A stretch of DNA of 35,080 nucleotides, taken from assembly GCA_044225085.1 (NCBI GenBank), contig JBGAJE010000002.1, forward strand, positions 1-35,080. Reading direction: 5' to 3'. Under the pieces are notes generated by a model. It made no database searches, was not told where the DNA came from, and worked only from the letters and a program-made list of their open reading frames with translations. Within the stretch, counting starts at the first letter, position 1. Every line of letters starts with the position of its first letter. The position numbers and the translations under genes are program-made. Of the stretch, positions 3,986-35,080 are shown piece after piece. This DNA is from Rickettsiales bacterium (GTDB taxonomy: Bacteria > Pseudomonadota > Alphaproteobacteria > Rickettsiales > UBA3002).

Positions 3986-5107
3986 TTATCGCACGCGCAA
4001 ACGTTGGTAAAGCGCCAGATAGTCGGTGGCCATCTTCTGCGCGGTAAATTCTGCCTCAAACCTCGCACGAGCGGCCTGGCCATAGCGGGTGGCGCGGGTG
4101 TCATCGGTGGCGATGGTTCGCATGGCGGCGGCGAAGGCGGTTGGGTCGCTTGGGGATACAACGAGGCCGGTGACGTCATGCTGGTTAATGTAACTGGTTC
4201 CCGTTCCGATTTCGCAGCTGATCATGGGTTTGCCCATCATCGCTGCTTCGAGCAGGCTAACGCCAAAGGCTTCGGAACGTAAATGCGAGGGGAAAACGAA
4301 TGCGCGGCAGAGCGTGAGTAACGCCATTTTATCGAGATCGCTGATTTCGGCGGTGAAGTGGATGTTGGGTGCGCCGACGGCGGCTTGGCGGAGTGCAGCT
4401 TCTTCCCTGCCCTTACCGACGATGACCACGGGGAGGCCCGTTTCGCGCGCGGCGGTCATGAGAGTGGGCAGGCCTTTGTAATAGCGTAGTGCTCCGGTGA
4501 AGAGAAAAAAGTTTTCGCCGTAGCGTGTGCGCCACTTGGCAAGGGTCGCCTCGTCTGGCCTAGGGTAGAGCGTTTCATCAAGCCCGATGGGGATGCTGGT
4601 GGTTTTGGCGTGGTAACGCTGAAGCACGGAGCTTGTTGCGATGTAGTTTGGGCTGGTGGCGACAATCGCGTTCATTTGGCCAAGGAAGCGATTCATTAGC
4701 GGTTGATAGAAAAGCTTCAGCAGTTTTTGACGAACGATGTCGGAATGATAAGTGACAAGCGCGGGAATATGTTTCGGCGCAAACTGGTGGAGCAGATCGC
4801 CCGAAGGCCACGGGAAGTGGTAGTGCAGCACATCCGCCGCGGCTGCGAGGCGATGGAAATCGCGGAAGGCAGTGAAGGAAATCCCGTTCGAGGCGAACTC
4901 GAGCGTGAGGGGATAATAGTGAATCGTGACGCCTTCATGCTCGGTGCTTGTTGGCGTTTGCACGGTGCGGCTGAGTGTGACTACAGTGACGCGGTGACCC
5001 ATCGCATGGTAAGCGACAGCAAGATGGCGGATGAATTGCTCCACCCCGCCAAAACTCGCGGTGTAATAGCTTTTGTAAACGTGCAGAATATGCAGTGGCT
5101 GTGTCAT
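3986..5107 (-). CDS. glycosyltransferase, GT-B fold (GT1/GT4-type)
   Basis: Start taken at MTQPLHILHVYKSYY (ATG 5107), inside ORF 3986..5164. C-terminal E-x7-E region SEAFGVSLLEAAMMGKPMISCEIGTG is typical of retaining GT4-family enzymes. Confidence 0.85.
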   Translation of the reverse strand: MTQPLHILHVYKSYYTASFGGVEQFIRHLAVAYHAMGHRVTVVTLSRTVQTPTSTEHEGVTIHYYPLTLEFASNGISFTAFRDFHRLAAAADVLHYHFPWPSGDLLHQFAPKHIPALVTYHSDIVRQKLLKLFYQPLMNRFLGQMNAIVATSPNYIATSSVLQRYHAKTTSIPIGLDETLYPRPDEATLAKWRTRYGENFFLFTGALRYYKGLPTLMTAARETGLPVVIVGKGREEAALRQAAVGAPNIHFTAEISDLDKMALLTLCRAFVFPSHLRSEAFGVSLLEAAMMGKPMISCEIGTGTSYINQHDVTGLVVSPSDPTAFAAAMRTIATDDTRATRYGQAARARFEAEFTAQKMATDYLALYQRLRVR

Positions 5108-10646: not shown

Positions 10647-10909
10647 GGAATAACTCCGTTGAGTATACGAATGTTGGGGTTTCCCCCAACCACAGCGCGC
10701 CGACGCGACTTAGGGCTGATAGCACCCTTTTATGTTTGTTCTGTGAGGCTTTTTTGGTTTGCCGCCTCATCTTGATTACGAATAACACACAGGTTTTCTG
10801 AACGCAAGGCTAAGAATATTAATGCAGACGACAAAATCCGAAATAAGCTTTTTACTGTAGGAATTACGTCACAGGATTTTTGAACGACTGTATAGGGCGA
10901 TTTCCCTAT

Positions 10910-10984
10910 TTGTCATTCCCGCGAAAGCGGGAATCTTAGAGTGCTTCTGCGGGTGCAAGATTCCCGCTTTCGCGGGAATGACAA
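10910..10984. repeat. palindromic element, family A (copy A1, intergenic pcm/nlpD)
   Basis: TTGTCATTCCCGCGAAAGCGGGAATCTT...AAGATTCCCGCTTTCGCGGGAATGACAA. Each arm is itself a hairpin (ATTCCCGC-N4-GCGGGAAT), and the two arms are inverted copies of each other. Confidence 0.85.
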
Positions 10985-12510: not shown

Positions 12511-13284
12511 TCACTTCACCACCGCCCGCAACTGCTTCAACACCGCGTAATTCGTCATATCCATATTAATCGGCGTCACGGTAATCCACCCCTCTTTAAT
12601 CTTCATATAATCCGCATCCGGCTGCTCGGTGAAGGGCTCCGTCCGCTGCCCGCCGATCCAGATATAGGGGCGCCCATGCGGGTCCACTCGGCGATGCAGA
12701 TTATCATCCAGCTTCCGCCGCCCCTGCGGGCAGGCAGCACGCCCCTTCACCAGCTCCACCGGCAGCGCCGGGAAGTTCACATTCATAAACGTATCATGCG
12801 GCCAATCAATCGCCGTCAAATCCCGAATAATCCCCGCCGCGAACTGCTCCGGCACATCCCAGCTAATGCCCTCATTCGTCAGCACGTTGGAAAACGCGAT
12901 GGCCGGAATCTCCAGCAACGTCGCCTCCATCGCCGCTGCGATCGTGCCGGAATACGTCACATCCTCCGCCAGATTGCTCCCGCGATTCACGCCCGATAAC
13001 ATCAACCCCGGCCGCTTATCCTTCAGCATTTCCATCACACCCACCAGCACCGCATCCGTCGGCGTGCCCATCACCGCGAACCGGCGCTCACTCACCTGCC
13101 GATACCGCAGCGGCGCATGCAGCGACAACGAATGCCCCGCCCCGCTTTGCTCCTTATCAGGCGCCACGACCCACACATCGTCCGACAACGTCCGCGCAAT
13201 GCGCTCCAGCACCGCAATGCCCTCAGCCTCAACGCCATCATCGTTACTGATCAGGATACGGGTGTTTTTTAGATTGATTGCCAT
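12511..13284 (-). CDS. surE: 5'/3'-nucleotidase SurE
   Basis: RILISNDDGVEAEGI, GTPTDAV and SGVNRGSNLAEDVTYSGTIAAAMEA match SurE signatures. Confidence 0.95.
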   Translation of the reverse strand: MAINLKNTRILISNDDGVEAEGIAVLERIARTLSDDVWVVAPDKEQSGAGHSLSLHAPLRYRQVSERRFAVMGTPTDAVLVGVMEMLKDKRPGLMLSGVNRGSNLAEDVTYSGTIAAAMEATLLEIPAIAFSNVLTNEGISWDVPEQFAAGIIRDLTAIDWPHDTFMNVNFPALPVELVKGRAACPQGRRKLDDNLHRRVDPHGRPYIWIGGQRTEPFTEQPDADYMKIKEGWITVTPINMDMTNYAVLKQLRAVVK

Positions 13285-13439
13285 TTACCTCTCCCATCGG
13301 GAGAGGTCTAAATTCGCCTTCGAATTTAGGTTGAGGGCCACACCGCTCAATCCCCCATCAGCGCAAAATAAAAGACACGCACAAGCCCTCACCCGAAATC
13401 GTAAAGAACGATTTCGACCTCTCCCGATGGGAGAGGTAA
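13285..13439. repeat. palindromic element, family B (copy B1, serS-surE spacer)
   Basis: Terminal hairpins TTACCTCTCCCATCGGGAGAGGTC / GACCTCTCCCGATGGGAGAGGTAA. Inner hairpins AAATTCGCCTTCGAATTT and CGAAATCG-N7-CGATTTCG. GTTGAGGGCC pairs with GCCCTCACC. Confidence 0.85.
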
Positions 13440-21917: not shown

Positions 21918-23094
21918 TTACGTCCGTGCCGCCGGGTCAAAAATCCGGGCGTGTTCTTCGAGGGCGAAGCGGTCCGTCATGCCGGCGATGAAGTCGGCGA
22001 TGATTTCGGCGGTGCGTTGGGTGCCTGTGCCATCCGTCTGGGCGTACCAGACCGAGGGTAAACAGCCTGGTTCTTCAAGGAAAAAGTTGAAGAGTTCCTG
22101 TACCACCCGGCGGGCCTTACTGGTCATGCGGTTGACCTTGAAATGGCGGTACATATGCTTGAATAGGAATGTTTTGATGGATTTATTGACGATTTCCATC
22201 TCTGCCGAGAAACGCACGAGTTGCTGGCCCAGCTTGCGCACATCTTCCGGTGAGGTGATTTTGAAATCTTTAATCCGCGCTTGGGTGTTGCCTAGCACGT
22301 CGCTCATCATGCGGTTAATCATCCGCCGCACCACTTCGTGGCTTTGGCGTTGGGGGGAGCATTGGGTATTGGCCACGCACTTCCATGATAAGTTCGCCGA
22401 GTAGCGGCAGGCCTTCCAACTCGTCGAGCGTGAAGAATCCCGCGCGCAGACCGTCATCGATGTCGTGGTTATTATAGGCGATGTCATCGGCAATGGCGGC
22501 GACTTGGGCTTCGGCGCTGGCGTAGCTGCTTAACTCTAAGTCCTGCTGCTCGATGTAATAGACGAGTGCGCGGGGAAGCGGCCTTGCACCGGCGAAGCCT
22601 GTGAGGGGCCCGTTATGCTTCGCGATGCCTTCGAGTGTTTCCCAGGTGAGATTCAGCCCATCGAAATCGGCATAGCGATTTTCGAGATGAGTGAGGATGC
22701 GGATGGTTTGGGCGTTATGGTCGAACCCGCCAAAATTTGCCATCGCTGCGTGCAACCCATCTTCCCCCGCATGGCCGAAGGGTGGGTGACCCAGATCATG
22801 CGCGAGGGCTAATGCCTCCGCCAAATCCTCATTCAGATGTAAACTGCGGGCGAGACCACGGGCAAGTTGCGCGACTTCCAGCGAATGGGTCAGACGCGTG
22901 CGGTAATGGTCGCCCTCGTGATTGACGAAGACTTGCGTCTTATATTCCAACCACCGAAACGCGACCGAGTGAATGATACGGTCGCGATCCCGCTGATGCG
23001 GTGTGCGCATGTGGCATTCGCGTTCAGAAAATAACCGCCCGCGGGATTTTTCGGGGTCGGTCGCATATGCTGCTAAATTCAGATACTGGGTCAT
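21918..23094 (-). pseudogene. dgt: dGTP triphosphohydrolase-like HD-domain protein, frameshifted in a G6/C6 run
   Basis: ORF 22315..23094 ([25 protein letters not shown]) and ORF 21918..22493 ([15 protein letters not shown]...GMTDRFALEEH) are the N- and C-terminal parts of one dgt-like protein in different frames. The junction is at the homopolymer 22352-22357. Confidence 0.8.
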
Positions 23095-25847: not shown

Positions 25848-26630
25848 GTGGCGAACTTTTCTTACCCCCCGAGGCTAGATAGTGAAACCCTTGCGGCTTT
25901 CGAGACTCGCGCGACCGAGATTTTTAAGGCCATTGAGATATTGGCTAGAAATGAAGGCGTACACTTAAGTCATATTTTCGCCTCTGCACTTACATTATCA
26001 GTAAAAAAAGTACCTTACAGGGACATGTCCCTGTCTTATCAGATTGTAATGGACGCGCGCGGTGGATTGGGAGATGTAACCCCCAAAAACTCTGAATTAT
26101 GCCGTAAAGTTTTTGCTGACTGGCATGAGCTGGCGGCGGATTATGCCGCTGCCTATGCCGTTGCGAGGGACAAGGCTAGAATAGCAACTCAAGAAGCAAA
26201 AGCCGAGAGGGAGCAAGCCCGCAAGATAGCAGCCGCTGCAAAGCGTCAGCAAGAATTGGCTCAAAAAAAATTGGAACAAGCTGAATGGGGGACACGTATA
26301 AAAAAGAAGGGCCAAATGAGAGCAGATGCCGCAGTTATGGAGACATTCGATATGCGCGCTAGAAATATTTATGAAACGCTCACTGATCTACTTACTAAGG
26401 CTTCGCCGCAGGTTTCGAAATATGACATTTTTTCTCTTAGTGAAATAAATACTAAACGCGTTCGCTATAAGACTGCGGGCTTAAGAAACGGTGAATCATT
26501 TGCGGATGCTTTAACGAAAATTCGAGGTGCTTTTGGCAATCATCCACCAGCCGATCTTGAAAAAGCATTGGATGACTGGCGCACATTAAGGGATGATTAC
26601 CAAAACCCAATTCGCACTAAGTCTCGTTAA
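25848..26630 (+). CDS. hypothetical protein (orphan): two repeats flanking a coiled-coil segment
   Basis: 260-aa ORF with a GTG start 4 nt after the xthA stop. Central QEAKAEREQARKIAAAAKRQQELAQKKLEQAE. The N- and C-terminal halves are alignable. Confidence 0.55.
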   Translation: MANFSYPPRLDSETLAAFETRATEIFKAIEILARNEGVHLSHIFASALTLSVKKVPYRDMSLSYQIVMDARGGLGDVTPKNSELCRKVFADWHELAADYAAAYAVARDKARIATQEAKAEREQARKIAAAAKRQQELAQKKLEQAEWGTRIKKKGQMRADAAVMETFDMRARNIYETLTDLLTKASPQVSKYDIFSLSEINTKRVRYKTAGLRNGESFADALTKIRGAFGNHPPADLEKALDDWRTLRDDYQNPIRTKSR

Positions 26631-27751
26631 GATTGATCTTTGAATTTAATTTTGAAGCGGGCTTCTTCGGCGTCGTTCTCGCTGAGTTCGGGTGCGGTTT
26701 CGGCCGGCGGGGTGTAATTGCCGCGTGCGCCGGGGACAGCGAGTTTGATGGTAGTGCCGCCGACATCAATACTGCCGAGACCTAATTCTTCGCGCGCCAT
26801 TTGACGGCTTGGGGGCAACTCGTATGCATTTTCTGCGAGGGGAAGTACTTTGTTGCGGCCGGCGTTTTTGGCTTCATAGAGCGCGTCGTCGGCACGTTTG
26901 AGGAGGGTATCGGGTGTGTCGGTCGGCAGCATGGTGGCGTAGCCGATGCTGACAGTTTTTTGGATTGGGCTATCTGGGTGGGTAATGGTGAATGGTGTGG
27001 ATTCGACAGCTTTGCGCAGGCGCTCAGCGGCCTCATAAGCACGTGCGGCGTCGGTTTCGGGCATGAGGATAACGAATTCTTCGCCGCCATAGCGTGCGGC
27101 CAAATCGGCGCTGCGGATGGCTTTGACGATGATGGAGGCGAGTTCTTTCAGCACTTCGTCGCCCACCGCGTGGCCGTAGGTGTCGTTCACCGACTTGAAA
27201 TGATCCATATCCATAATCACGGCGGAAAGGCTGCGCCCCTGCTCCAGCGCCTGGCGCACAAGGTTTTTCAAGTGCGTGTCGAGATAGTGGCGGTTATAGA
27301 GGCGGGTGAGGCCATCCGTCACCGCCATGGAAACGCTTTCCTGGTAATTCGATTTCAGGGCTTCCTGATATTTTTTACGGCGGATTTGGGTTTTGACGCG
27401 GGCGAACATCTCGTTGAAATCAACCGGCGTGAGCAGGTAGTCGTTCACACCCAGCTCCAGCCCTTTGAGCATGAGATGTTGGTCATCCTCATCCACCAGC
27501 ATGACAATCGGCACGTTGCGCACTTGCTCGATGGCTTTGAATTGGGTGGCAAGGCGCAGCCCATCGATATCCGCCAATTGGGTGGAGATGAATACAAGAT
27601 CGATCGTGTTCTCTTCCCCACGTGCGTAGTCGAGCGCTTGTTTATGGTCGCTGAAATGTTTGACGATGTAACCGCCAGAAGTGAGTTTTTCACTGACACG
27701 GCGAGCTTGCACAACATCGTCATCAATCAACATGAGATTACTGCCGCGCAT
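26627..27751 (-). CDS. pleD: PleD-like diguanylate cyclase, C-terminal part (pseudo-receiver + GGDEF)
   Basis: RYGGEEF active site with an RSAD I-site 5 aa upstream. An adaptor receiver domain lacking the phospho-Asp precedes it. An ~80-aa C-terminal tail follows. Confidence 0.85.
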   Translation of the reverse strand: MRGSNLMLIDDDVVQARRVSEKLTSGGYIVKHFSDHKQALDYARGEENTIDLVFISTQLADIDGLRLATQFKAIEQVRNVPIVMLVDEDDQHLMLKGLELGVNDYLLTPVDFNEMFARVKTQIRRKKYQEALKSNYQESVSMAVTDGLTRLYNRHYLDTHLKNLVRQALEQGRSLSAVIMDMDHFKSVNDTYGHAVGDEVLKELASIIVKAIRSADLAARYGGEEFVILMPETDAARAYEAAERLRKAVESTPFTITHPDSPIQKTVSIGYATMLPTDTPDTLLKRADDALYEAKNAGRNKVLPLAENAYELPPSRQMAREELGLGSIDVGGTTIKLAVPGARGNYTPPAETAPELSENDAEEARFKIKFKDQS

Positions 27752-27759
27752 GTCGAAAT

Positions 27760-28203
27760 TCAGTGAAAGTCACTCGCACTCATACCGAGCTGGCTGCCGG
27801 ATTTATCGCGTAAGCGCAGTTCATCGATCAGCACTTTAATGCGCACGAGGGAGCGTACACGGGCAAAGAGCGCGGTGTCGTTAATCGGTTTGGTGATGAA
27901 ATCGTCCGCACCGGCTTCGAGTCCAGCCACGCGGTCGGACGGTTCGGAAAGGGCGGTGACCATGACGACGGGGATGTGTGAGACATCCGGATCCGCCTTG
28001 AGGCGACGGCAGGTTTCAAAACCGTCGATGCCAGGCATCATCACATCGAGCAGGATGAGGTCCGGGTTTTTTGTTTTCGTTTGCTCGATGGCTTCAAAGC
28101 CATCCTTGGCAGTGACGTCGTAATACTCATTGGCGAGCTTCGCTTCGAGAAGCTTGATATTGGCCGGCACATCATCGACTACGGCACTAATCCGGTCACG
28201 CAT
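27760..28203 (-). CDS. pleD: PleD-like N-terminal phospho-receiver domain, separated from the rest by a frameshift
   Basis: VVDDVPANIKLLEAKL, LILLDVMMPGIDG and ITKPI are present. It ends in the inter-domain linker 8 nt before the next ORF. Confidence 0.85.
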   Translation of the reverse strand: MRDRISAVVDDVPANIKLLEAKLANEYYDVTAKDGFEAIEQTKTKNPDLILLDVMMPGIDGFETCRRLKADPDVSHIPVVMVTALSEPSDRVAGLEAGADDFITKPINDTALFARVRSLVRIKVLIDELRLRDKSGSQLGMSASDFH

Positions 28204-28209
28204 TACCCT

Positions 28210-28592
28210 TTATGCTGCTGTCCGCAGCTCTAAAAACCGGCGGATGGTCATTAGAAAATCATCAATCGCGATGGGTTTTGAGGTAAGCTTCACAGCCAGC
28301 AGCCATGATTTTTCCTCATCGTCCTTCATCGCGAAGGCGGTTACAGCAATAATTGGAATATGCTGGATCTGCGAATCCACTTTTGATTTTGCGGGTGACA
28401 TCGAGGCCCGGAAATCTCGGAACAGTTGTATATCCATCTCACAATTAAGTCCGGCTGCACATTGCGGGTGATGCTGATAGCTTCGATCCCCTCTTTGGTC
28501 TCGTATGTCTCGTAGCCATTCGCGCCCAAAAGATCGCGAAAGAGCTTCAAGTTCAGGTCGTTATCTTCGACGATGAGAATCTTCTTTGCCAT
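28210..28592 (-). pseudogene. divK: DivK-like single-domain response regulator, disrupted by multiple indels
   Basis: MAKKILIVEDNDLNLKLF...PDLI is in frame 0. MDIQL, SEISG, LDVTRKIK, DSQIQHIPIIAVTAFAMKDDEEK, IMAAGCEAYL and SKPIAIDDFLMTIRRFL are scattered over three frames. Confidence 0.8.
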
Positions 28593-28662
28593 GCGCGGCG
28601 GTTCTCCCTGTTAGCCGTAATATAGTTACTTTTTCGGGAATTATTTACGGAAAACTCCTGCT

Positions 28663-28764
28663 CCCTCTCCCCTCGCGGGAGAGGGCTGGGGTGAGGGGGT
28701 TCTCCACTGGCGAAAAGCGGGGGTTGGCCCCCTCATCCTAACCTTCTCCCGCAAGGGGAGAAGG
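28663..28764. repeat. palindromic element, family C (copy C1, polA-divK spacer)
   Basis: CCCTCTCCCCTCGCGGGAGAGGG hairpin, GGGGTGAGGG pairing with CCCCTCATCC, and CCTTCTCCCGCAAGGGGAGAAGG hairpin. Starts 8 nt downstream of the polA stop. Confidence 0.8.
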
Positions 28765-28772
28765 GATAAAAA

Positions 28773-31700
28773 TTAATGCGCGTCGCCCCAGTGCTGGCCG
28801 ATGCCTGCTTCGACCGTCAGGGGGACGGAAAGTGCGGCTACATTTTCCATCGTGCGCTTCACTTGCGGGGCGAGCGCGGCGGCTTGGTCTGCTGGAGCTT
28901 CGATGATGAGTTCGTCATGCACTTGAAGGAGAAGACGCGCCCCTTTCACCTCTCCCACCGGGAGAGGTCGAAATCCGCCTTCGGATTTCGGGTGAGGGCC
29001 CGACAGTGAAGAAGACTGCAGCGCGGCGCCCTCACCCAAAATTTGCGGGGGCAAATTTTGACCTCTCCCGGTGGGAGAGGTAAGAAGTCCATGCACCTCA
29101 ATCATCGCGCGTTTGATGATATCTGCCGCTGTGCCTTGCAGCGGCGCATTGATTGCTGCGCGCTCCGAGAACGACCGGAAGTTCGGGTTCTTTGCATTAA
29201 TATCGCGCACGTGAATGCGGCGACCATACAGCGTTTCGACATATTCATGCTCGCGCGCGAACTGGATCGTGCGATCCATATATTCCCGAATCCCCGGATA
29301 GCGCTCGAAATATTTGCCGATATAGGTCGATGCCTCGGAGCGCGAAATACCGAGCTGCGCGCTTAAGCCATGCGCGCTGATGCCGTAAATAATCCCGAAA
29401 TTAATCGCCTTTGCGCGGCGGCGAATTTCGGGGGTCATTTGGTCGAGCGGCACGCCGAACATCTCGCTCGCCGTCACTGCGTGAATATCGGCACCACTGC
29501 GGAACGCTTCCTTCAGCGCGCCGATATCGGCCATATGCGCGAGCAGTCGTAGCTCGATCTGCGAATAATCCGCTGAGATAAGCTTGAACCCCGGTGGAGC
29601 GATGAACGCGGTGCGAATACGACGGCCCTCTTCGGTGCGGATCGGAATATTTTGTAAATTCGGATCGCTCGATGCCAGCCGCCCCGTGCTCGCCACCGCC
29701 ATTGAGAAACTCGTATGCACCCGCCCGTCGCGCGGCGATGTCGCCTTGGGCAACGAATCCGTATAGGTGCTTTTCAGTTTTGAATATTGCCGCCACTCAA
29801 GCACTTTGCGGGCGATCTCGTGCCCCTCTTCCGCCAGCGCCTCGAGCGTTGCGGCATCGGTGGTATACGCGCCACTTTTGCTCGATTTTTTACCACCGCC
29901 AAGCTGGAGCTTGTCATACAGCACCTCGCCCAATTGCTTCGGCGAACCCACTGAGAACGGCATGCCAGCGAGTTTGATGACTTCCTCTTCCAGCGCATTT
30001 ATTTTCAGTGCGAACTGGCCGGAGAGTTCGGTCAGCAACTTCACATCAATCGCCACGCCCGCCACTTCCATCGCCGCGATCACGGGCACAAGCGGCCGCT
30101 CGATCGTCTCATACACCGTCACTACATGGTTCGCGATGAGTTGGGGTTTTAGCAATTCATAAAGCCGCAGCGTAAAATCCGCATCTTCCGCCGCGTAGTC
30201 CGTCGCCGCATCCAGCGGCACTTGCGCGAAGTTGATTTTCGCTTTGCCTGTACCAGTGACGGATTCATAGGAAATCATCTTATGGTTAAAGTGTCGGTCG
30301 ACGAGAAAATCTAACCCATGCGCGTGCAACCCACCTGCCGTGCAGTAGGACATCAACATCGTATCCGCCACCGGCGATATGCGCGCACCATATTTCTCCA
30401 GCACCACGAGGTCGTATTTAATGTTATGGCCAACCTTCATTACGGATGGATGGGTGAGCATCGGCTGTAACAATTCCAGCACGCGTGGCAGTGAAAGTTG
30501 CCCAGGCAGCAGTTTCTTCTGCCCACTTGTTGGCGCATCAAATAAACTCGATTGCGGCACCGCGTCGCCACCCATTTCACTCACATGACCGACGGGGATG
30601 TAGCATGCCTTGCCCGGTGCCGTGCTCAGCGAAATACCAACGAGTTCCGCATCCACCGCCGCAAGCGATGTTGTTTCGGTATCTACCGCCAGCGTGCCCA
30701 CGCGCATCGCCTCGGTGATCCAACGTTGGAGTGCCGCTTCATCGGCAACCATTTCGTAATGCGCTTCAACTTTGTCATTCCCGCGAAGGCGGGAATCTTC
30801 TGATATTTGCGCCATATCCGAAGAGAGATTCCCGCCTTCGCGGGAATGACGTGTGGAGGGGTTCGTGAATCTTGCTGCCGCCGGATTTGCTGATGACTGA
30901 TGACTAGTGGCTGATTCACCTGCTAGTCCCATCTTCTTCGCGAGTGATGAAAAGTTCTGGGCATCCAAAAACGCCGCCAGCGCGGCGCTATCAAACGGCC
31001 GCGTCTCCAGCGCCGCCAGCGGCTCCGGCAGCGGCACGTCGTGCTTCAGCTCCACCAACTGCCGCGACATCCGCGCCGCCTCCGCATGCGTCGTCAGCAC
31101 TTCGCGCCGCTTCGGTTGTTTGATTTGATCGAGATGCGCCAGCACCCCCTCGAGCGTCCCGAATTGCGTAATCAACTCCGCCGCCGTCTTCGGCCCAATG
31201 CTCGGCACCCCCGGCACATTATCCACCGAATCCCCAATCAGCGCCTGCACTTCGACGACCTTATCCGGCATCACGCCGAATTTTTCCACCACCTGCGCGC
31301 TACCGATGAATTTCTGCTTCATCGGGTCCATCATCGTCACTTCACCATCAACGACGAGCTGCATCAAATCCTTGTCGGAGGACACAATCACCACCTCGCG
31401 CCCCTCGGCCCGCGCGGCCTCCGCATAGCTTGCGATCAAATCATCCGCCTCGTAATTCTCAAGCTCAATCGCCGGGATATTCAGCGCCCGCGTTACCTCG
31501 CGCACCAGTGGAAATTGCGGAATCAGCTCCTCCGGCGTTTCCGAGCGGTTCATTTTATATTCGGGATACAACTCCGAGCGGAAGCTCTTGCGTCCCGCAT
31601 CGAAAATCACCGCCAGCATATCGTGCTTATAGGTCTCGCGCAGCTTCAGCAGCATGGTGGTGAAGCCATAGACAGCCCCGACTTGTGTCCCATCTCGCCG

Positions 31701-31808
31701 CGTCAGCGGAGGCAGCGCGTGAAATGCCCGAAAAATATAGCCCGAGCCATCGACCAACACGAGACGTTGGGGTTTTGTTTCAGCGGTTGCAGTTTGTGCG
31801 GTTTCCAT
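28773..31808 (-). CDS. polA: DNA polymerase I (1011 aa, carrying two repeat-derived in-frame insertions)
   Basis: 5' nuclease domain (LVDGSGYIFRAFHA), 3'-5' exonuclease domain (LAVDTETTSL), and polymerase motifs A (SADYSQIELR), B (RRRAKAINFGIIYG) and C (QVHDELI). Confidence 0.95.
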   Translation of the reverse strand: METAQTATAETKPQRLVLVDGSGYIFRAFHALPPLTRRDGTQVGAVYGFTTMLLKLRETYKHDMLAVIFDAGRKSFRSELYPEYKMNRSETPEELIPQFPLVREVTRALNIPAIELENYEADDLIASYAEAARAEGREVVIVSSDKDLMQLVVDGEVTMMDPMKQKFIGSAQVVEKFGVMPDKVVEVQALIGDSVDNVPGVPSIGPKTAAELITQFGTLEGVLAHLDQIKQPKRREVLTTHAEAARMSRQLVELKHDVPLPEPLAALETRPFDSAALAAFLDAQNFSSLAKKMGLAGESATSHQSSANPAAARFTNPSTRHSREGGNLSSDMAQISEDSRLRGNDKVEAHYEMVADEAALQRWITEAMRVGTLAVDTETTSLAAVDAELVGISLSTAPGKACYIPVGHVSEMGGDAVPQSSLFDAPTSGQKKLLPGQLSLPRVLELLQPMLTHPSVMKVGHNIKYDLVVLEKYGARISPVADTMLMSYCTAGGLHAHGLDFLVDRHFNHKMISYESVTGTGKAKINFAQVPLDAATDYAAEDADFTLRLYELLKPQLIANHVVTVYETIERPLVPVIAAMEVAGVAIDVKLLTELSGQFALKINALEEEVIKLAGMPFSVGSPKQLGEVLYDKLQLGGGKKSSKSGAYTTDAATLEALAEEGHEIARKVLEWRQYSKLKSTYTDSLPKATSPRDGRVHTSFSMAVASTGRLASSDPNLQNIPIRTEEGRRIRTAFIAPPGFKLISADYSQIELRLLAHMADIGALKEAFRSGADIHAVTASEMFGVPLDQMTPEIRRRAKAINFGIIYGISAHGLSAQLGISRSEASTYIGKYFERYPGIREYMDRTIQFAREHEYVETLYGRRIHVRDINAKNPNFRSFSERAAINAPLQGTAADIIKRAMIEVHGLLTSPTGRGQNLPPQILGEGAALQSSSLSGPHPKSEGGFRPLPVGEVKGARLLLQVHDELIIEAPADQAAALAPQVKRTMENVAALSVPLTVEAGIGQHWGDAH
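28945..29083. repeat. palindromic element, family B (copy B2, inside the polA polymerase domain)
   Basis: TTCACCTCTCCCACCGGGAGAGGTCGAAATCCGCCTTCGGATTTCGGGTGAGGGCC...GCCCTCACCCAAAATTTGCGGGGGCAAATTTTGACCTCTCCCGGTGGGAGAGGTAA. Same module order as B1. Confidence 0.85.
30772..30850. repeat. palindromic element, family A (copy A2, inside the polA inter-domain linker)
   Basis: TTGTCATTCCCGCGAAGGCGGGAATCTT...GAGATTCCCGCCTTCGCGGGAATGAC. It is translated in the polA frame as RHSREGGNLSSDMAQISEDSRLRGND. Confidence 0.85.
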
Positions 31809-31817
31809 AACTCTCCA

Positions 31818-31912
31818 TTGTCATTCCTGCGAAGGCAGGAATCCAGCGCGACGTGAGACGCGTCGCAAGTATCATTTAAGAAGCTGGATGCCAGCCTTCG
31901 CTGGCATGACAA
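31818..31912. repeat. palindromic element, family A (copy A3, polA/esterase divergent spacer)
   Basis: TTGTCATTCCTGCGAAGGCAGGAATCCAG...CTGGATGCCAGCCTTCGCTGGCATGACAA with a central hairpin GCGACG-N7-CGTCGC. Confidence 0.8.
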
Positions 31913-34385: not shown

Positions 34386-35080
34386 CTAGATTTTGGCCGC
34401 ATCGATACCAACCGCATCGGCCAAATGCCTGAACCCGTCGCGCGCTAACAATTCCACCAACCCACGATTCACCCGCTCCGCCAGCCCAAAGCCCTGATAC
34501 ACTAGCGCCGTGTAAAGCTGCACCAAACTCGCCCCTGCGCGAATCTTCGCATACGCATCCTCTGCACTGCTAATCCCACCGACGCCGATAAGTGGCACCT
34601 TCCCGCCCGTTAGCCGATACATGGTGGCGAGTGCGGCGGTTGAAGCCTCAAACAACGGCCGCCCGCTGAGGCCCCCCGCCTCGCCCGCCAGCGCACTGCC
34701 CGCCACGCGGTCACGCGCAATCGTCGTGTTGCTGACGATCAGCCCATCGAGCTTCTCACCGAGCGCCACCTCCGCAATCGCCTCAAACATCGCCGGGTCC
34801 CCATCCGGCGCGATTTTGACAAAGATGGGTTTTGTTTGGCTGGATGGAGCGTCTTGAGCCCTCTCCCCTCGGGGGAGAGGGTTGGGTGAGGGTGCTATCA
34901 TCCGCTTTTCGTTGTTAGTCTCGTCGCCAGCGGATGGCCCCCTCATCCCACCCTTCTCCCCCATGGGGAGAAAGCGTGCCCGTTCCGCCTGCAACGCCCG
35001 CACCAGCGCTCGCAGCTCATCCGCCGCCTGCAGCGCCCGCAAACCCGGCGTGTTGGGCGAGGAGATATTCGCCGTGATGT
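34386..35080 (-). CDS. pyrD: dihydroorotate dehydrogenase (quinone), C-terminal part (5' end outside window), carrying a repeat-derived insertion
   Basis: The frame is open to the window edge: ITANISSPNTPGLRALQ...PIFVKIAPD...LIVSNTT...GGLSGRPL...IGVGGISSAEDAYAKIRAGASLVQLYTALVYQG. Confidence 0.9.
   Translation of the reverse strand, partial: ITANISSPNTPGLRALQAADELRALVRALQAERARFLPMGEKGGMRGPSAGDETNNEKRMIAPSPNPLPRGERAQDAPSSQTKPIFVKIAPDGDPAMFEAIAEVALGEKLDGLIVSNTTIARDRVAGSALAGEAGGLSGRPLFEASTAALATMYRLTGGKVPLIGVGGISSAEDAYAKIRAGASLVQLYTALVYQGFGLAERVNRGLVELLARDGFRHLADAVGIDAAKI
34859..34973. repeat. palindromic element, family C (copy C2, inside pyrD)
   Basis: CCCTCTCCCCTCGGGGGAGAGGGTTGGGTGAGGG...GGCCCCCTCATCCCACCCTTCTCCCCCATGGGGAGAAAG. 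Same module order as C1. Confidence 0.85.

Follow-up and report, generated by a model that had tools for sequence, protein, structure and literature searches.

Rickettsia palindromic elements (RPEs), described by Ogata et al. (2000, 2002), lie in frame within many housekeeping genes and have been judged compatible with the folds of the proteins that they enter (PMC10969869). A sizeable loop of a different kind is found in DNA polymerase theta (Pol theta), whose insert 3, a 33-amino-acid (aa) loop of the palm, is absent from bacterial DNA polymerase I (Pol I) (PMC9962433; PMC2879524) and is needed for the bypass of abasic sites and thymine glycol (PMC9962433). The whalefall-1 motif, in turn, was described from 16 whale-fall metagenome sequences as a pair of hairpins and then a purine-rich tail (Weinberg et al. 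2010, PMC2864571); it was rated as certainly an RNA, classed as a noncoding small RNA (sRNA), and reported from whale-fall metagenomes only (PMC2864571). Here we describe a whalefall-1-like palindromic repeat, which we call family B, that lies in frame within polA, the gene for Pol I, just ahead of the sequence for catalytic motif C. It was found in a 35,080-nucleotide stretch of contig JBGAJE010000002.1 from a Rickettsiales bacterium (the window). Translated RPE-like palindromes were known before; what is new is that the same polA loop is repeatedly filled by different repeats in relatives.

Family B and RPEs are alike in that both are alphaproteobacterial palindromes of about 100 to 150 bp, occur between genes as well as in stop-free frames of housekeeping genes, and add a peptide segment judged compatible with the fold of the host protein. 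The window shows the combination by which RPEs are recognized, namely, an in-frame, stop-free palindromic insertion in a conserved gene together with intergenic copies. The two differ in that family B is a separate, GC-rich sequence family (a distinction made independently of the RPE consensus sequences) and in that its hosts are uncultured metagenome-assembled genomes (MAGs). Whereas RPEs occur in dozens of genes, polA was the sole true coding host of family B in the sample searched, and here two different repeat families, A and B, lie within this one gene. The family-B terminal hairpin was absent from the one Rickettsia polA locus that was fetched (L047). By analogy, the insertion would work in an RPE-like manner, although we do not class it as an RPE. 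To our knowledge, accounts of RPEs do not include a single loop that is occupied again and again by several repeat families.

The palindromic element and its translation in polA

The polA gene of the window encodes a product with 5'-nuclease, 3'-5' exonuclease, and polymerase domains (Pfam PF02739, PF01367, PF01612, and PF00476, precomputed for the identical protein P0001). These three domains, together with motifs A (DYSQIELR), B (RRxAKxxNFGxxYG), and C (QVHDE), mark it as a Pol I-type member of family A, and a phmmer comparison with the Klenow fragment gave an E value of 2e-105. Catalytic columns that are invariant across 76 orthologues span Exo I to III, motifs A and B, and H964, D965, and E966 of motif C. 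All of them are present in the window product (D376/E378, D466, D542, D747, K800, Y808, and H964-D965-E966). The features of the gene and of the family-B copies in the window are as follows.

28773-31808, minus strand: polA (DNA polymerase I), a single uninterrupted open reading frame (ORF) of 1011 aa
28911-28925, minus strand: motif C QVHDE, Q962-E966, with the catalytic Asp and Glu, placed by the invariant columns and by alignment to the Klenow QVHDE
28941-29081, minus strand: codons of the 47 repeat-encoded residues T910-G956, placed by translation
28946-29083: family-B palindromic repeat element, 138 bp, two inverted arms around a short center, in frame in polA
28946-28999, plus strand: arm 1, with hairpin 1 (28948-28968), hairpin 2, and the GGGTGAGGGC tail; a whalefall-1 match
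29000-29027: variable center, encoding roughly ALQSSSLS; its length and sequence differ from those of B1 and of the other polA copies
29028-29083, minus strand: arm 2, an inverted whalefall-1-like arm with hairpin 1 at 29061-29081
29103-29138, minus strand: helix Q motif QGTAADIIKRAM, residues 891-902, ending just before the insert, placed by phmmer and the orthologue alignment
13285-13439: sister copy B1, intergenic, between serS and surE, abutting the surE start codon

An earlier note on this DNA, made without database searches, had claimed that polA reads through the repeat in frame and that the repeat's modules follow the order of those in the intergenic copy B1 (13285-13439). The uninterrupted ORF bears out the first claim and a module-by-module alignment the second. 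The polA element is a near-perfect nested palindrome that runs from a 21-nt terminal hairpin through a second small hairpin and the block GGGTGAGGGCC to the variable center and then through the same three modules inverted; the arms at 28948-28979 and 29050-29081 are complementary at 91%. Its terminal hairpin has the structure ACCTCTCCC-NNN-GGGAGAGGT, and the second hairpin reads AAAT..GC....GC..ATTT. The window contains four occurrences of the 21-nt terminal hairpin ACCTCTCCCNNNGGGAGAGGT, two per element, where zero are expected from 100 dinucleotide-preserving shuffles; within an element, the two terminal hairpins repeat each other in direct as well as inverted orientation. Folded as RNA, the polA copy forms a single long hairpin with a computed energy of -102.4 kcal/mol (z = -12.6). 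B1 folds alike (z = -10.8, computed as DNA), and its arms are 86 to 93% identical to those of the polA copy around a center that varies. A match to mir-2545 (41.9 bits against a cutoff of 94) was rejected as an artifact of the long hairpin.

B1 ends at the surE start codon (GGGAGAGGTAA-ATG, minus strand; surE at 12511-13284). Its terminal hairpin adjoins this start and therefore provides a Shine-Dalgarno-like GGAGAGG. The layout of an element before surE recurs in an unrelated metagenome contig (L102, 66-861, reading ...FRPLPMGEVT-MTINLK..., SurE-like).

Translation of the polA copy yields TSPTGRGQNLPPQILGEGAALQSSSLSGPHPKSEGGFRPLPVGEVKG, exactly the peptide given in the earlier note, and the tryptic peptides predicted from the repeat-bearing product include GQNLPPQILGEGAALQSSSLSGPHPK and SEGGFRPLPVGEVK. 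Residues T910-G956 are followed by ARLLL and then by Q962-V-H-D965-E966, so that the insert occupies the connector leading from helix Q to the QVHDE strand. This connector has 47 residues here, 4 in Escherichia coli Klenow, and 4 to 6 in most orthologues. The phmmer alignment breaks at the same site (query residues 274/320, Klenow 545/550), setting 45 residues against 4 in Klenow. This matches the earlier estimate of about 45 aa added between helix Q and motif C, and the accompanying count of 58 residues from KRAMI to QVHDEL, against 17 in E. coli, was correct. An intein, intron, or other self-removing insert, to be recognized by splicing motifs or catalytic RNA structure and a size of at least about 130 aa, was considered and rejected: the insert is 47 aa of low complexity, and all copies are in frame. 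No Rfam intron was found in 28850-29180.

An AlphaFold2 model of the polA product, built on the orthologue alignment, had a mean predicted local distance difference test score (pLDDT) of 87.6 and target-normalized template modeling scores of 0.91 to 0.94 against Klenow structures. Helix Q (875-910) and the strand E958-963, which flank the insert, reached a pLDDT of 94 to 97. Residues 916-950 of the insert fell below 50, and residues 911-957 had no secondary structure. The model thus predicts that the insert is a disordered coil and that the Klenow fold is kept, and, taken with the invariant catalytic columns, it agrees with the earlier description of an otherwise intact polymerase. A structure prediction had been proposed in the earlier note as a way to see whether the insert projects from the surface; in the model, the insert departs from the far end of a six-residue palm strand, not from the active site itself, and by strand geometry it would lie roughly 25 to 30 Å from the catalytic Asp. 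The wording "immediately before QVHDE" is therefore apt for the sequence, where the insert ends 5 residues before Q962 and 9 before D965, and inapt for the modeled structure, where the beta strand E958-963 lies between.

In human Pol theta, 40 residues separate QGSAADIVKIATVNIQKQL from FFILQLHDE (PDB chain 7zus). These extra residues lie past the QGxAAD helix and before the xLHDE strand, at the same sequence position as the polA insert. The two inserts have no sequence similarity. Lesion bypass depends on the Pol theta insert, which is conserved, whereas the polA insert is repeat-derived and present or absent among close relatives. Going by residue numbers, the 40 residues are probably insert 3; the published descriptions consulted here give only its size and subdomain. 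If they are, family A polymerases are able to accommodate a sizeable loop at this position and even to make use of it.

Both arms of the element show a match to RF01762, the Rfam covariance model of whalefall-1, for which the gathering score is 37 bits. The whalefall-1 seed sequence UCACCUCUCCUUUAGGAGAGGUCGAAACUACU... is nearly identical to an element arm. The cmscan matches were distributed as follows.

13385-13439, minus strand: arm of intergenic B1, 43.2 bits, above the gathering score
28946-28999, plus strand: polA arm, 35.4 bits, E = 7.6e-8, full model 1-56, just under the gathering score
29028-29083, minus strand: polA arm, 33.7 bits, E = 2.8e-7, under the gathering score
Related loci: 12 matches in 10 loci, 37 to 45 bits, including polA of L125 (40.9 bits; 852-906) and of L133 (38.1 bits; 4320-4373)

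On these scores we identify the repeat family as whalefall-1, with the window polA copy just short of the threshold. Whalefall-1 was published as a stand-alone sRNA; the copies described here are instead paired in inverted orientation, lie on either strand, come from many metagenomes, and can fall inside coding sequence. Pairing of the inverted motifs makes a palindrome of 105 to 165 bp. One arm pattern was matched exactly by 64 metagenome stretches, in which the element lies mostly between genes or at gene ends, and the second hairpin covaries strongly between copies. Only two of these arm-bearing stretches, L125 and L133, contain a real in-frame coding host, which in both is polA. Most of the other long ORFs that span an element were rejected as Arg/Pro/Gly-rich wrong-frame readings of GC-rich DNA, and in the remaining stretches (for example, L085, L101, and L102) the element stands at a gene end. 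A profile built from four polA insert peptides and searched against 1.84 billion representatives returned only four weak matches (E values of 1e-4 or weaker). These, too, were rejected as real hosts: three are short ORFs that look like gene calls made in error over intergenic copies, and the fourth is a protein of tandem repeats. The search thus found the family-B peptide in no other bona fide host protein. With inverted pairs in one palindrome, copies on both strands, and a copy within the polA frame, the motif, as judged from sequence, does not fit its annotation as an independent sRNA gene. The whalefall-1 "sRNA" looks like a single arm of a palindromic repeat with dispersed copies, and its Rfam description is probably in need of revision.

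In L101 (450-1140, minus strand), a Maf-like gene runs at its 3' end into the family-B terminal hairpin, which appears to provide the last codons (...FLPLPSGEV) and the stop of the gene, another route by which the repeat enters coding sequence.

The element has the terminal inverted repeats (TIRs), small size, and multiple copies of a MITE (miniature inverted-repeat transposable element). Its ends are themselves palindromic (CTTAA...TTAAG or GAATA...TATTC), and because the flanks are inverted repeats, a TA or TTAA target-site duplication (TSD) is indistinguishable from the palindrome. Consistent with this, no TSD was definable from 27 element pairs and a 97.5%-identical filled/empty pair, in which flanks are palindromic and boundaries ragged. 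No gene for a transposase or a REP-associated tyrosine transposase (RAYT) was found within the 35-kb window. Like doublets of repetitive extragenic palindromes (REPs), or REPINs, and like bacterial MITEs, family B is small, noncoding, present in many copies, built from inverted modules, and usually intergenic. A GTAG/CGTC head defines most REPs (PMC3733652), and in this family B differs, as its sequence has no such head. In architecture, an inverted doublet of structured modules with covarying stems, family B resembles REP doublets more closely than it does classical TIR/TSD MITEs.

Contents of the loop in related polA genes

We measured the loop as the stretch from QG(T/S)AAD to (Q/E)(V/I)HDE, which was possible in 115 of the 120 best polA homologues. 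The stretch is 30 to 36 aa long, corresponding to a connector of 4 to 6 residues, in 96 homologues and 37 to 42 aa long in 9; in the other 10 it reaches 47 aa or more. Loop content was read from the DNA of nine such genes and from one protein sequence. Full family-B elements are present in the window, L074, L075, and L125. In L133, the family-B 3' arm is retained and a different palindrome is nested in place of the 5' arm, and P0069, known as a protein only, has half an element. Solo terminal hairpins stand at the same codon position in L140 (TSPGGRG) and in L143 (a decayed copy). Because the terminal hairpins repeat each other in both direct and inverted orientation, such solo remnants are the product expected from recombination between them. 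The loops of L144, L145, and L146 hold palindromes unrelated to family B, each with a fold z score of -7 or lower; that of L144 is a relative of family A of the window. Repeats of at least three types other than family B thus occupy this site in orthologues. Comparable nonpalindromic loops in orthologues would have counted against the claim of the earlier note, and every long loop with readable DNA proved to be palindromic.

All carriers of an element inside polA came from protein-indexed or metagenome contigs, and none of the species-representative genomes fetched via polA had one there. Beyond the window, family-B carriers came from at least four independent assemblies, made by other groups with other pipelines (L074 from JGI, L075 from ENA, L125, and L133, which matches an NCBI MAG protein). 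The right-hand junction of family B is common to all five polA carriers (the window, L074, L075, L125, and L133). The 5'-arm subtype shared by L074 and L075 differs from that of the window and L125, and the left junction of L125 differs as well. The family persists in polA genes only 66 to 75% identical to that of the window.

Close relatives can nevertheless differ in what the loop holds: the filled P0005 and the empty P0028 share 97.5% protein identity, and P0037, with a full element, is 90% identical to P0044, with a remnant. These filled/empty and full/remnant pairs indicate that turnover of the loop is recent. In a neighbor-joining (NJ) tree, filled polA genes are scattered among empty ones. 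The earlier note had proposed that alignment to orthologues would define exact insertion boundaries; the alignments place the insertion in the loop, but the boundaries are ragged when filled and empty genes are compared (L074 versus L142). Taken together, the sequences make several gains and losses seem likelier than a single ancient event. An old insertion that decayed later is also compatible with the shared right junction and with the solo remnants.

The reading frames of the inserts are informative about selection. Of the 6 frames of an element copy, about 1.6 are on average free of stops, and 5 of 22 copies have no open frame at all. By comparison, stops are absent from all 8 loop inserts with DNA that was read, five belonging to family B and three to other types, and all 8 keep the downstream frame. 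Given the low average, these in-frame inserts are a selected subset, and the universal open frame is a signature of selection on the translated sequence. It also argues against mRNA removal or ribosomal bypass, neither of which needs an open frame. The 3'-arm peptide PHPK.E..FRPLP.GEVK is invariant in the five polA copies. Because the same nucleotides are conserved in intergenic copies, this is not evidence of peptide function.

Accounts of the insertion

The account that we favor, with a probability of roughly 0.8, is that a permissive connector tolerates a selfish palindromic repeat, in the form of a disordered surface loop, and that the repeat is subject to frequent gain, decay, and loss. 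A small noncoding repeat that also forms an intergenic family would have become part of the polA coding sequence and, with a length that keeps the frame and a frame without stops, would be transcribed and translated with polA. Its product would be a loop of about 45 residues, rich in Gly, Pro, and Ser and lacking structure, that emerges where the palm strand has its outer end; in sequence, the catalytic Asp is about 9 residues away. Selection would act only against insertions that disrupt the frame or the fold. Within the clade, several palindrome families would enter the loop, be partly or wholly deleted, and nest into one another, and recombination between the two terminal hairpins would be one route of deletion. 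Most likely, the enzyme still works; this, the neutrality of the insert, and the mode of element movement are inferred. The earlier note had left two outcomes side by side, a loop that tolerates the insert or a polymerase with altered activity. The evidence favors tolerance because the model predicts disorder for the insert but a confident fold around it, because the same loop holds palindromic inserts in many orthologues, and because Pol theta naturally has 40 extra residues at the same sequence position.

Several points weigh against this account. Both expression and enzyme activity are predictions from sequence and from a model. A near-perfect 60-bp palindrome (-102 kcal/mol) in the mRNA could lead to ribosome stalling or attack by RNase III, and as DNA it could form a cruciform; given such costs, "neutral" is perhaps too generous. 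In E. coli Pol I, the polymerase domain is less critical than the 5'-nuclease, and a damaged polymerase domain might be tolerated. A frameshifted divK and split pleD and dGTPase genes on the contig reflect either assembly indel errors or a genome that tolerates decay, and in either case the step from an intact ORF to a functional one is weakened. The scatter in the NJ tree and the unclean boundaries are compatible with different numbers of independent insertions.

Alternatively, the insert might have been co-opted, such that the palm loop alters lesion bypass, the use of poorly paired primers, or partner binding and is kept by selection. The match in position to the 40 extra residues of Pol theta lends this idea some appeal, as deletion of insert 3 abolishes the bypass of both abasic sites and thymine glycol (PMC9962433). 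The invariant 3'-arm peptide of the five polA copies and the retention of family B across genes as divergent as those described above point the same way. The conserved peptide is explained, however, by conservation of the family at the DNA level, intergenic copies included, and the insert is predicted to be disordered. A 97.5%-identical relative without the insert, and others with a 7- to 10-residue remnant or unrelated repeats, form a pattern of dispensability, and the peptide profile found no other bona fide host proteins. We therefore regard co-option as unlikely. We consider it very unlikely that the segment is left out of the mature protein, by removal from the mRNA or by translational bypassing, or that the polymerase domain is dead and only the 5'-nuclease is used. 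An extraordinarily stable hairpin and other disrupted genes on the contig would suit such a scenario, and the Pol I polymerase domain is dispensable under some conditions in model bacteria. Yet removal or bypassing would not need inserts that are stop-free and multiples of three, as 8 of 8 are, and a dead domain is at odds with the conservation of all catalytic residues downstream of the insert. RPEs, for their part, were reportedly found by Ogata et al. in 2000 to be retained in mRNA. An assembly artifact, in which a repeat was collapsed or misjoined into polA during metagenome assembly, is improbable in the extreme: repeats are a classic source of misassembly, and divK, pleD, and dgt show signs of indel errors, but polA is contiguous on both flanks in one frame, and the same family sits at the same codon position in the independent assemblies L074, L075, L125, and L133.

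Tolerance of a selfish repeat remains the preferred reading. In a more far-reaching one, the connector between helix Q and motif C might be a landing pad at which unrelated palindromes come in, are trimmed, and are exchanged over short evolutionary times, with this repeat traffic as a source of new loops. At least some of the loops would alter the enzyme (in bypass, primer use, or partner binding) as insert 3 does at what seems to be the same position, and the covariation of whalefall-1 might reflect mobile DNA and not an RNA gene; we hold this reading to be unlikely. The loops described here amount to a natural allelic series (empty, remnant, half, full, nested double, and unrelated palindromes) in an easily assayed enzyme. 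They make testable a question that dates from the RPE era, namely, whether translated selfish repeats are neutral passengers or raw material. The helix Q/beta-12 connector is, moreover, a site at which family A polymerases may admit added sequence, which would be of use for engineering. On the practical side, annotation pipelines will put a whalefall-1 "sRNA" inside polA.

The polA neighborhood and other palindromic families

An Abhydrolase_2 gene lies upstream of polA, and receiver, receiver-GGDEF, and Exo_endo_phos genes lie downstream. This gene order is syntenic with that of relatives, indicating that the window gene is the chromosomal housekeeping polA. The closest polA genes, 65 to 71% identical, come from uncultured alphaproteobacterial MAGs labeled Rickettsiales bacterium, Alphaproteobacteria bacterium, or uncultured Azospirillum; identity to the polA of a Rickettsia MAG (L047) is only 39%.

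Three genes on this side of polA are broken. A divK-like gene for a single-domain response regulator, between polA and pleD (28210-28592, minus strand), consists of two overlapping ORFs in different frames, the result of either assembly indel errors or pseudogene formation. The pleD-like gene (26627-28203, minus strand) is split into pieces a few bases apart and is one gene of 519 to 523 aa in relatives. The dGTPase-like gene (21918-23094, minus strand) is split into overlapping HD and HD_assoc ORFs; it is unbroken, at 364 to 425 aa, in three relatives (the contigs encoding P0006, P0002, and P0028) and is fragmented also in L074. The pieces are located as follows.

28341-28592 and 28210-28437, minus strand: divK-like ORF fragments, with apparent frame changes at about 28380-28440
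27760-28203, minus strand: pleD-like piece, receiver ORF of 147 aa
26627-27751, minus strand: pleD-like piece, receiver-GGDEF ORF of 374 aa
22315-23094, minus strand: dGTPase-like piece, HD ORF
21918-22493, minus strand: dGTPase-like piece, HD_assoc ORF

Two other palindromic families lie in or near polA.

30771-30850: family A palindromic repeat (GTCATTCCCGCGAAGGCGGGAATCT...), unrelated to family B, lying in frame in the polA linker that joins the 5'-nuclease to the 3'-5' exonuclease
10909-10984: a further copy of family A
31817-31910: a degenerate copy of family A, just upstream of the polA start
28656-28765: third palindromic family (CCCTCTCCCCTCGCGGGAGAGGGCTGGG... / ...CCTTCTCCCGCAAGGGGAGAAGG), just downstream of the polA stop
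34852-34972: the third family again

The arms of the family A repeat in polA (30774-30798 and 30826-30850) are 100% complementary, and the repeat encodes STRHSREGGNL...SRLRGNDK (residues ~320-346). In the AlphaFold2 model, residues 298-338 around it have a pLDDT below 50. P0004 has the same linker insert, and about ten other orthologues have other repeat-like peptides in the linker. A relative of the third family is nested within the family-B element of the L133 polA loop.

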